Of a DNA stretch of 64,000 nt, positions 2,391-2,499 are shown in pieces. Where the stretch lies: positions 50,220,001 through 50,284,000 of the forward strand of contig NW_026889750.1 in NCBI RefSeq assembly GCF_033153115.1. Reading direction: 5' to 3'. The stretch's first letter is position 1; every line of letters begins with the position of its first letter. Below the pieces are notes generated by a model. It searched no databases and was not told where the DNA came from. It was given only the letters and a program-made list of their open reading frames with translations. Position numbers and translations under genes: made by a program. This DNA comes from Saccostrea echinata (lineage: Eukaryota).

Positions 2391-2499
2391 AATAGCTTAA
2401 TAAAGCTATTCTCAATAGCTTTATCAAGCTATATAGCTAGATAAAGCTATATAGCTTAATCAAGAGATTGTGCTGGACCTGCTTAATAGGCTCCCTTAA
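2391..2499. mobile_element. Putative terminus of a large TTAA-target (Kolobok/piggyBac-like) DNA element with subterminal palindromic repeats
   Basis: Four ~18-bp palindromic units ATAGCT-N6-AGCTAT (fourth partial), followed by ...GGCTCCC|TTAA at 2495/2496. The partner end is not in the window. Confidence 0.45.

Follow-up and report, generated by a model that had tools for sequence, protein, structure and literature searches.

Palindrome arrays in both ends of a Saccostrea echinata transposon: candidate sites for the element's own MADS-PHD protein

Near the left edge of a 64-kb stretch of Saccostrea echinata DNA (64,000 nucleotides, called the window here), four short palindromes are crowded against the end of a transposon. 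Which protein, if any, do they serve? An earlier note on this DNA took them for C(A/T)8G boxes of the CArG type, placed beside a TTAA end and recognised by a MADS-PHD protein of the element itself. The analysis presented here arrives at a different repeat unit and a different end and favours the same protein: judged from comparisons of sequence, the array, which is conserved in both ends of the transposon, may be recognised by MADS-PHD dimers that the element itself encodes and that would mark the ends for the transposase, a reading to which a probability of roughly 0.55 is given.

Ends of the element and the unit of the array

A genome search with the end returned an inverted copy 6 kb leftward and two further full copies of the element. 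The inverted repeats of 246 bp start CAGGTCCAG and enclose an element of 6,165 bp (Table 1), the three full copies of which differ by 5-10 substitutions in ~5,977 bp (0.1-0.2%). The junction CCC|TTAA, at first taken for the terminus, proves to be single-copy flank; the element ends ...GGACCTG at 2481. Neither the GGGAGCC terminus suggested for the opposite end nor a TTAA target duplication is found, the duplication being 5 bp long, whereas the boxes expected at the other end are there, the array being mirrored in both inverted repeats. The 5-bp duplications of the three full copies are all different (CTTAA, ATTAA and CAAAG). Read by eye, an exact 5-bp duplication flanks 17 of 19 end pairs, in a set drawn with a flank-containing query and after one duplicate locus and the cross-pairings of nested ends had been dropped. 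For 18 loci selected by position, 13 of the 19 pairings carry the duplication (10 of them independently, as four share flanks), and one of the 13 contains TTAA. Assignment to the piggyBac/Kolobok type of TTAA element was considered and rejected on the 5-bp duplications, the CAGG..CCTG form of the ends and the lack of piggyBac end features.

Each inverted repeat also contains an inward-pointing TATA-like box, located at repeat position 197-208 in F011, F081 and F091/92, for which we infer a promoter role. Outside the element, the single-copy flank holds a 147-aa open frame (2649-3089, minus strand) without a Pfam match. Further into the window, 6560-11400 and 48388-50716 consist of arrays of 164-168 bp repeats in both orientations, which we take to be typical of the oyster Helitron-associated satellite.

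Table 1. Positions of the element, its genes and its end features, in window coordinates unless another system is named
Feature	Position	Strand	Remarks
DNA transposon, right part	1..2481	+	6,165 bp in total, G000:C1:50216317-50222481; remainder lies left of the window
MADS-PHD exon 3	1..491	-	Ser/Pro/Thr linker and PHD finger, PF00628 E 6.6e-6; runs past the window edge
MADS-PHD exon 2, visible part	607..695	-	encodes the beta-hairpin half of the MADS domain; acceptor placed from sibling copy L012
Transposase exon 6, visible part	842..1235	+	contig joins and gene model
Transposase exon 7	1329..1451	+	contig joins and gene model
MADS-PHD exon 1	1471..1623	-	basic N-terminal arm and recognition helix to ..ILKK; PF00319 E 0.0017
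Transposase exon 8 to stop	1876..1925	+	GT..AG joint; preceding intron contains MADS exon 1 on the opposite strand
Right terminal inverted repeat, 246 bp	2236..2481	-	one mismatch to the left repeat; begins CAGGTCCAGCACAATC
TATA-like box (TATAAAAG)	2267..2274	-	lies within the inverted repeat and faces inward; position shared with sister families; not included in the short repeats of the derivatives
Array unit 4, TAGCT-N6-AGCTA	2393..2408	.	74-89 from the terminus; the only C(A/T)8G core
Array unit 3, TAGCT-N6-AGCTA	2416..2431	.	51-66 from the terminus
Array unit 2, TAGCT-N6-AGCTA	2434..2449	.	33-48 from the terminus
Array unit 1	2452..2467	.	one intact arm; 15-30 from the terminus
Target site duplication CTTAA, 5 bp	2482..2486	+	identical at the left end
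Single-copy flank, outside the element	2487..2499	+	1 match in G000

The four 10-bp cores first described (2396-2405, 2419-2428, 2437-2446 and 2455-2464, spaced 23/18/18 bp) are present, but their description as CArG-like boxes fails: one of the four fits C(A/T)8G, and none fits CC(A/T)6GG or CTA(A/T)4TAG. The C(A/T)8G pattern by itself occurs 69 times in the window and was rejected as the conserved feature, the sole fitting core being CTTAATAAAG and the three others having an internal C or G. The conserved unit is instead a 16-bp palindrome, TAGCT-N6-AGCTA, with three perfect copies and a one-armed fourth. Its degenerate form TAGST-N6-ASCTA has three matches in 64 kb, all inside the array, compared with a mean of 0.26 in shuffled sequence (0 of 100 shuffles reach three), and none of 20,000 dinucleotide-shuffled versions of the 110-nt end contains three perfect-arm units. 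An alternative register centred on TATATA was rejected, as its spacing is not the same from unit to unit or from family to family (0, 5 or 6 bp) while N6 is constant.

Over 27 units of the near clade (three of which come from an end labelled F099 that is probably an inserted gene-less derivative; in the same comparison of ends, one F089 unit is mis-registered and F117 unit 1 fits better one base further in), the centres are 91% A/T and pair poorly, the arms pair at 81-100%, and C occupies position -5 in 43 of 54 half-sites. Conservation is highest in the outer TAG, beyond the 10-bp core. Cores in this set match C(A/T)8G in 8 of 27 cases, CTA(A/T)4TAG in 2 and CC(A/T)6GG in 0.

Two interleaved genes

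The gene models place a transposase on the plus strand and a MADS-PHD protein on the minus strand, the latter inside introns of the former. The transposase model, of eight exons and ~852 aa, has no internal stops, carries YFDNN, GCDGL and DFILE and contains D, D and E motifs, with a Cys/His region at its N-terminus. Its last three exon joins are supported by contigs of one run presumed to be RNA. Intron 5, a GC-AG intron according to a contig join (L012 4939/5914), contains MADS-PHD exons 2 and 3 on the other strand. A search recovered 943 transposase relatives at E 0.001 or better. A search for longer homologues of exon 1 gave none. The element's own transposase exons have no Pfam match; DUF6589 (PF20231), presumably the Academ transposase family, is listed by 12 of 26 scanned homologues and lies above cut-off in 3 of 26. 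These matches suggest an element related to Academ, standing near it. The N-termini of distant homologues match RAG1_imp_bd. In two other families (L089 and L090), the transposase bears a compact C-x2-C..H-x4-H finger just after the second Asp that is absent in the window family. A PML_C-type exonuclease frame near a decayed relative (L082 2191-3030, plus strand) probably belongs to another element.

The claim in the earlier note that the element encodes a MADS-PHD protein is well founded. The model, of 265 aa in the order MADS, linker and PHD, has three GT-AG exons in all three copies, and the protein sets of oyster, scallop and clam contain spliced homologues. PF00319 is matched in whole homologues at E 9.6e-13 (an oyster homologue) and 3.4e-10, SRF is the best match in a search of the PDB, and an intron follows KK in phase 0, as in the host SRF gene. 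A structural model of the scallop homologue consists of a helix (39-64) and strands (69-83) and places MEF2, SRF and MCM1 on top in a fold search, at E 0.016 at best. Identity over the MADS core, 16 of 47 positions to SRF and 14 to MEF2, does not separate the two. Between families, pN in the MADS domain is 0.28-0.36 with pS saturated or nearly so, as in the transposase; for MADS, PHD and transposase together, pN spans 0.21-0.36 and pS is at or near saturation. By these measures, the partner protein is a working MADS domain under purifying selection. Expression data are less favourable: the stretches covered by the sequencing contigs showed no spliced MADS-PHD join, and exon 1 carries a 4-base insertion in contigs of two studies, both of which are counted against binding by a MADS dimer. 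The sequencing runs recorded as RNA contained no match to the element gene.

The basic arm preceding the MADS helix (window 1560-1600, minus strand) reads KRGRPRSG or KRGKPRSG in sister families, which we take to resemble an AT-hook motif. It is preceded in turn by a conserved PGKNxKGQ, similar to PGKKTKGR of SRF.

Selection on the array and its variation between families

Comparison of the window family with its sister F081 reveals how strictly the arms are held. The two transposases are 60% identical, and synonymous sites are saturated (pS 0.81-0.95); the arms are identical at 35 of 35 positions, the centres at 17 of 24 and the inner repeat at 96 of 145. The ends are also numerous, the terminus pattern giving 1,005 exact matches in the genome and its reversed control 0. 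Elements sampled from among them are mostly 0.7-2 kb long, with a coding match in 0 of 20 loci, and these gene-less derivatives, taken to be mobilised in trans, have only the first ~98 bp, terminus plus array, in common with the full element. At least two full units are present in 30 of 37 distinct sampled ends. The array can be regarded as a cis-element for mobility because the derivatives keep it while the TATA region falls outside the part they keep. Selection maintains it, probably for recognition of the ends, and a promoter role is possible in full elements.

Gene-less derivatives are often nested in or adjoin one another or a full element (L019 7911-9289; L013 1095-1304; L174), some with 5-bp duplications of their own. 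One derivative of 1.45 kb is found four times (L166, L176, L178 and L180) with identical flanks and duplication, indicating that it travels inside another repeat.

Twenty-one transposase families were arranged on a rough tree, built from fragments anchored on the window family and serving as a guide only; MADS exons are found in 18 of them (one weakly) and in none of the other three. Ends were recovered for 15 of the 21 (those of F083, F113, F101, F082 and F103 were not, and the F098 end is truncated), and repeated palindromes occur in all 15. In the near clade, TAG(C/G)T arms lie at ~15/33/51/74 from the terminus. F086 has TAGTG arms at 33 and 52, and F085, F116 and F117 have CC/AC..GG/GT cores, F117 with CCGATATCGG and CCTTTTATGG and one perfect CC(A/T)6GG core. 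In distant families the arms are different, but the 5-N6-5 layout persists, about as far from the terminus: those of F090 are TTACG, in 5-N6-5 units of period 18 at 13/31/49/67, and those of F089 are of GGATG type. The repeat of F095 is longer-spaced. Every end that was checked starts with CAG; F085, F117 and F090 make 5-bp duplications, and the register of the array to the terminus is kept across families with 32-60% transposase identity.

Co-occurrence of the boxes with the MADS gene, proposed earlier as a check, holds in one direction, in that an array is present in each of the 12 MADS-bearing families whose ends were recovered. It appears to break down in the other, as palindromic arrays are also present in F089, F090 and F095, for which no MADS or PHD match was obtained, unless their partner gene should prove to be a remote MADS fold. 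Arrays in gene-less derivatives are to be expected.

Helix and arms vary together in part. The F085/F116/F117 clade has both the most SRF-like helix (S-K/R-R-K) and the most CArG-like cores. At the position of the helix that reads G, presumably SRF K163, a lysine goes with C(-5)/G(+5) in every one of 21 arms and a glutamine in 10 of 21, by hand count. Each helix-motif change is a single event on the tree, and the transposase changed along with it, so that this co-variation cannot name the binder.

F089 and F090 have intronless transposases of 1045-1084 aa and a tandem second gene that belongs to no Pfam family (L089 2666-3349 and L090 3982-4509, both minus strand). Its product, which gives no profile match to MADS, is predicted to form a helix (16-46), strands (56-72) and a second helix (75-82). 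Foldseek places MEF2 chains at ranks 3, 4, 8 and 10, all at E 1.3 or worse; a wide fold search returned single-helix matches only, with Z 4.4 at most, and a homodimer prediction scored 0.01, which is evidence neither way. On these models, the partner is possibly a remote MADS fold. F095 and F090 also share an extra convergent gene piece, WSIKGYH..LE..NP.DP.A.KV (L095 3963-4271 and L124 310-645, plus strand), without a Pfam match and, we assume, HIRAN-like.

Candidate binders and known systems

In the favoured mechanism, one MADS dimer would occupy each unit, contacting the arms through the major groove and the A/T-rich 6-bp centre through the minor groove. As many as three or four dimers would bend or coat the end, helping to load or pair the transposase, which would itself read the outermost ~14 bp, and the PHD finger would add a chromatin contact. 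MADS binding could also regulate both genes, the units lying 120-190 bp upstream of the inward TATA-like box. End recognition is the likelier main role because the array, unlike the TATA region, survives in gene-less derivatives. Unit size, symmetry and A/T centre are counted in favour of a MADS dimer, in that they match MADS sites, described as ~16 bp long with an A/T centre and borders read by a helix lysine (PMC10178880). So are the helix-motif agreement between families and the precedent of a partner protein in Harbinger, where the Myb-like partner of Harbinger3_DR is reported to bind a 9-bp subterminal motif and to interact with the transposase (PMC9710019). That most cores lie outside the textbook CArG consensus is counted against it.

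The arrays of F089, F090 and F095, with no detectable MADS gene, make the transposase a serious rival, though one that appears distinctly less probable than the MADS dimer. The units would then be bound by a dimerising DNA-binding domain of the transposase that reads the two inverted 5-bp arms, and the MADS-PHD protein would have some other task, perhaps at target chromatin or in host silencing. Arrays are present wherever ends were recovered (15 families), their constant distance from the terminus is what a transpososome would call for, and the N-terminal Cys/His region offers a candidate domain. It would also have parallels in the piggyBac CRD, described as binding TGCGT-N7-ACGCA (PMC5861402), and in the MURA sites placed at positions 34-64 of the terminal inverted repeat (PMC10401008). 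However, the MADS domain, conserved and of a DNA-binding type, would then have nothing to bind within the element, and the CArG-like cores occur in the very clade with the most SRF-like helix. F089 and F090, moreover, may not be true negatives, their partner being predicted as helix, beta-hairpin and helix, a MADS-like order.

Host factors, namely MEF2 or SRF, or GATA proteins at the centres, acting to drive or silence promoters in the inverted repeats, are an improbable explanation. The genome has a host SRF gene and two MEF2-like genes, 2 of the 27 units are perfect MEF2-type cores, two centres in the window family read WGATAA, and the array is upstream of a TATA-like box. Yet the arms vary by family within one genome (TAGCT, TAGTG, TCYCY, TTACG, GGATG), following the element tree, which a fixed host factor would not allow; the GATA centres are absent in F081, and derivatives lacking the TATA region retain the array. 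Least probable of all is that no specific protein is involved, the array being a by-product of slippage and hairpin-templated homogenisation or a DNA structure: its strand folds well (z -5.0) and has a period-18 tandem signal, but the minimum-energy fold makes up only 6.5% of the ensemble, arms are kept while centres and linkers drift, and the register to the terminus persists across the divergent families.

The MADS-dimer reading permits a broader extension, put forward here tentatively and with more doubt than belief. A whole lineage of animal transposons might have captured an SRF-type MADS box as an end-binding factor, the helix of each family co-evolving with its own 16-bp palindrome (from a true CArG to TAGCT, TAGTG and TTACG arms); the distant partner would then be a MADS fold beyond detection, and ~1000 ends would be genome-wide sites for a transposon-made MADS-PHD factor. 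If MADS does bind, a transposon would have recruited a host developmental DNA-binding domain as the subunit that recognises its ends, a domestication opposite in direction to the usual one, and families that pair a changed helix with changed arms would form a natural series for the rewiring of MADS specificity. Two modelled intact genes, and siblings 0.1-0.2% apart, make both this claim and the chemistry of a 5-bp-duplicating, apparently Academ-related transposase directly testable.

Academ elements typically carry a helicase or XPG nuclease and make duplications of 3-4 bp (AcademX) or 9-10 bp (AcademH). The present element is similar to both in its long inverted repeats and in that some homologues of its transposase match PF20231. 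It differs in its 5-bp duplication, in having no helicase or XPG frame within 6.2 kb, and in its separate, interleaved MADS-PHD gene. Transib and RAG-like elements make 5-bp duplications and have a convergent second gene with a PHD finger. Both features recur here, and distant homologues match RAG1_imp_bd; the ends, in contrast, are CAG and not CAC, the catalytic core is apparently of Academ type, and the partner is MADS and not kelch. The MuDR duplication is 9 bp. MuDR (mudrA/mudrB) resembles the element in its long inverted repeats, which contain binding sites and promoters for two genes as described in PMC10401008, but there a MULE transposase binds the repeat, and MuDR has no MADS partner. 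In the piggyBac 19-bp repeat, too, which lies close to the ends, a pair of inverted 5-bp arms flanks a spacer, although that spacer is 7 bp, the binder is part of the transposase and the target is TTAA; according to PMC5861402, a cross-brace (PHD-like) finger can itself bind DNA in that system. With the CArG boxes of SRF, MEF2, MCM1 and plant MADS proteins, the units share a two-fold 16-bp site and an A/T-rich 6-bp centre, whereas their flanks are TAG/CTA and not TTN/NAA, and most cores miss all three consensus forms.

Academ elements are described as abundant in bivalves (PMC10294476). No MADS-bearing animal transposon was found in the literature searched, and the 100 curated Academ families of that study may include the present elements. 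New here are the place where the element ends, the 16-bp unit with the selection on it and its changes from family to family, and a copy that is both intact and young; that two-protein transposons with subterminal arrays are already known limits the surprise. The closest of these in operation is PIF/Harbinger, where PMC9710019 describes a second gene with a transcription-factor-type DNA-binding domain and a short repeated subterminal motif. By analogy, the system likely works as PIF/Harbinger does, without being a member: the partner is MADS-PHD and not Myb/SANT, the transposase is DUF6589/Academ-like, the duplication is 5 bp and not 3 bp, and the repeated motif is a 16-bp palindrome.
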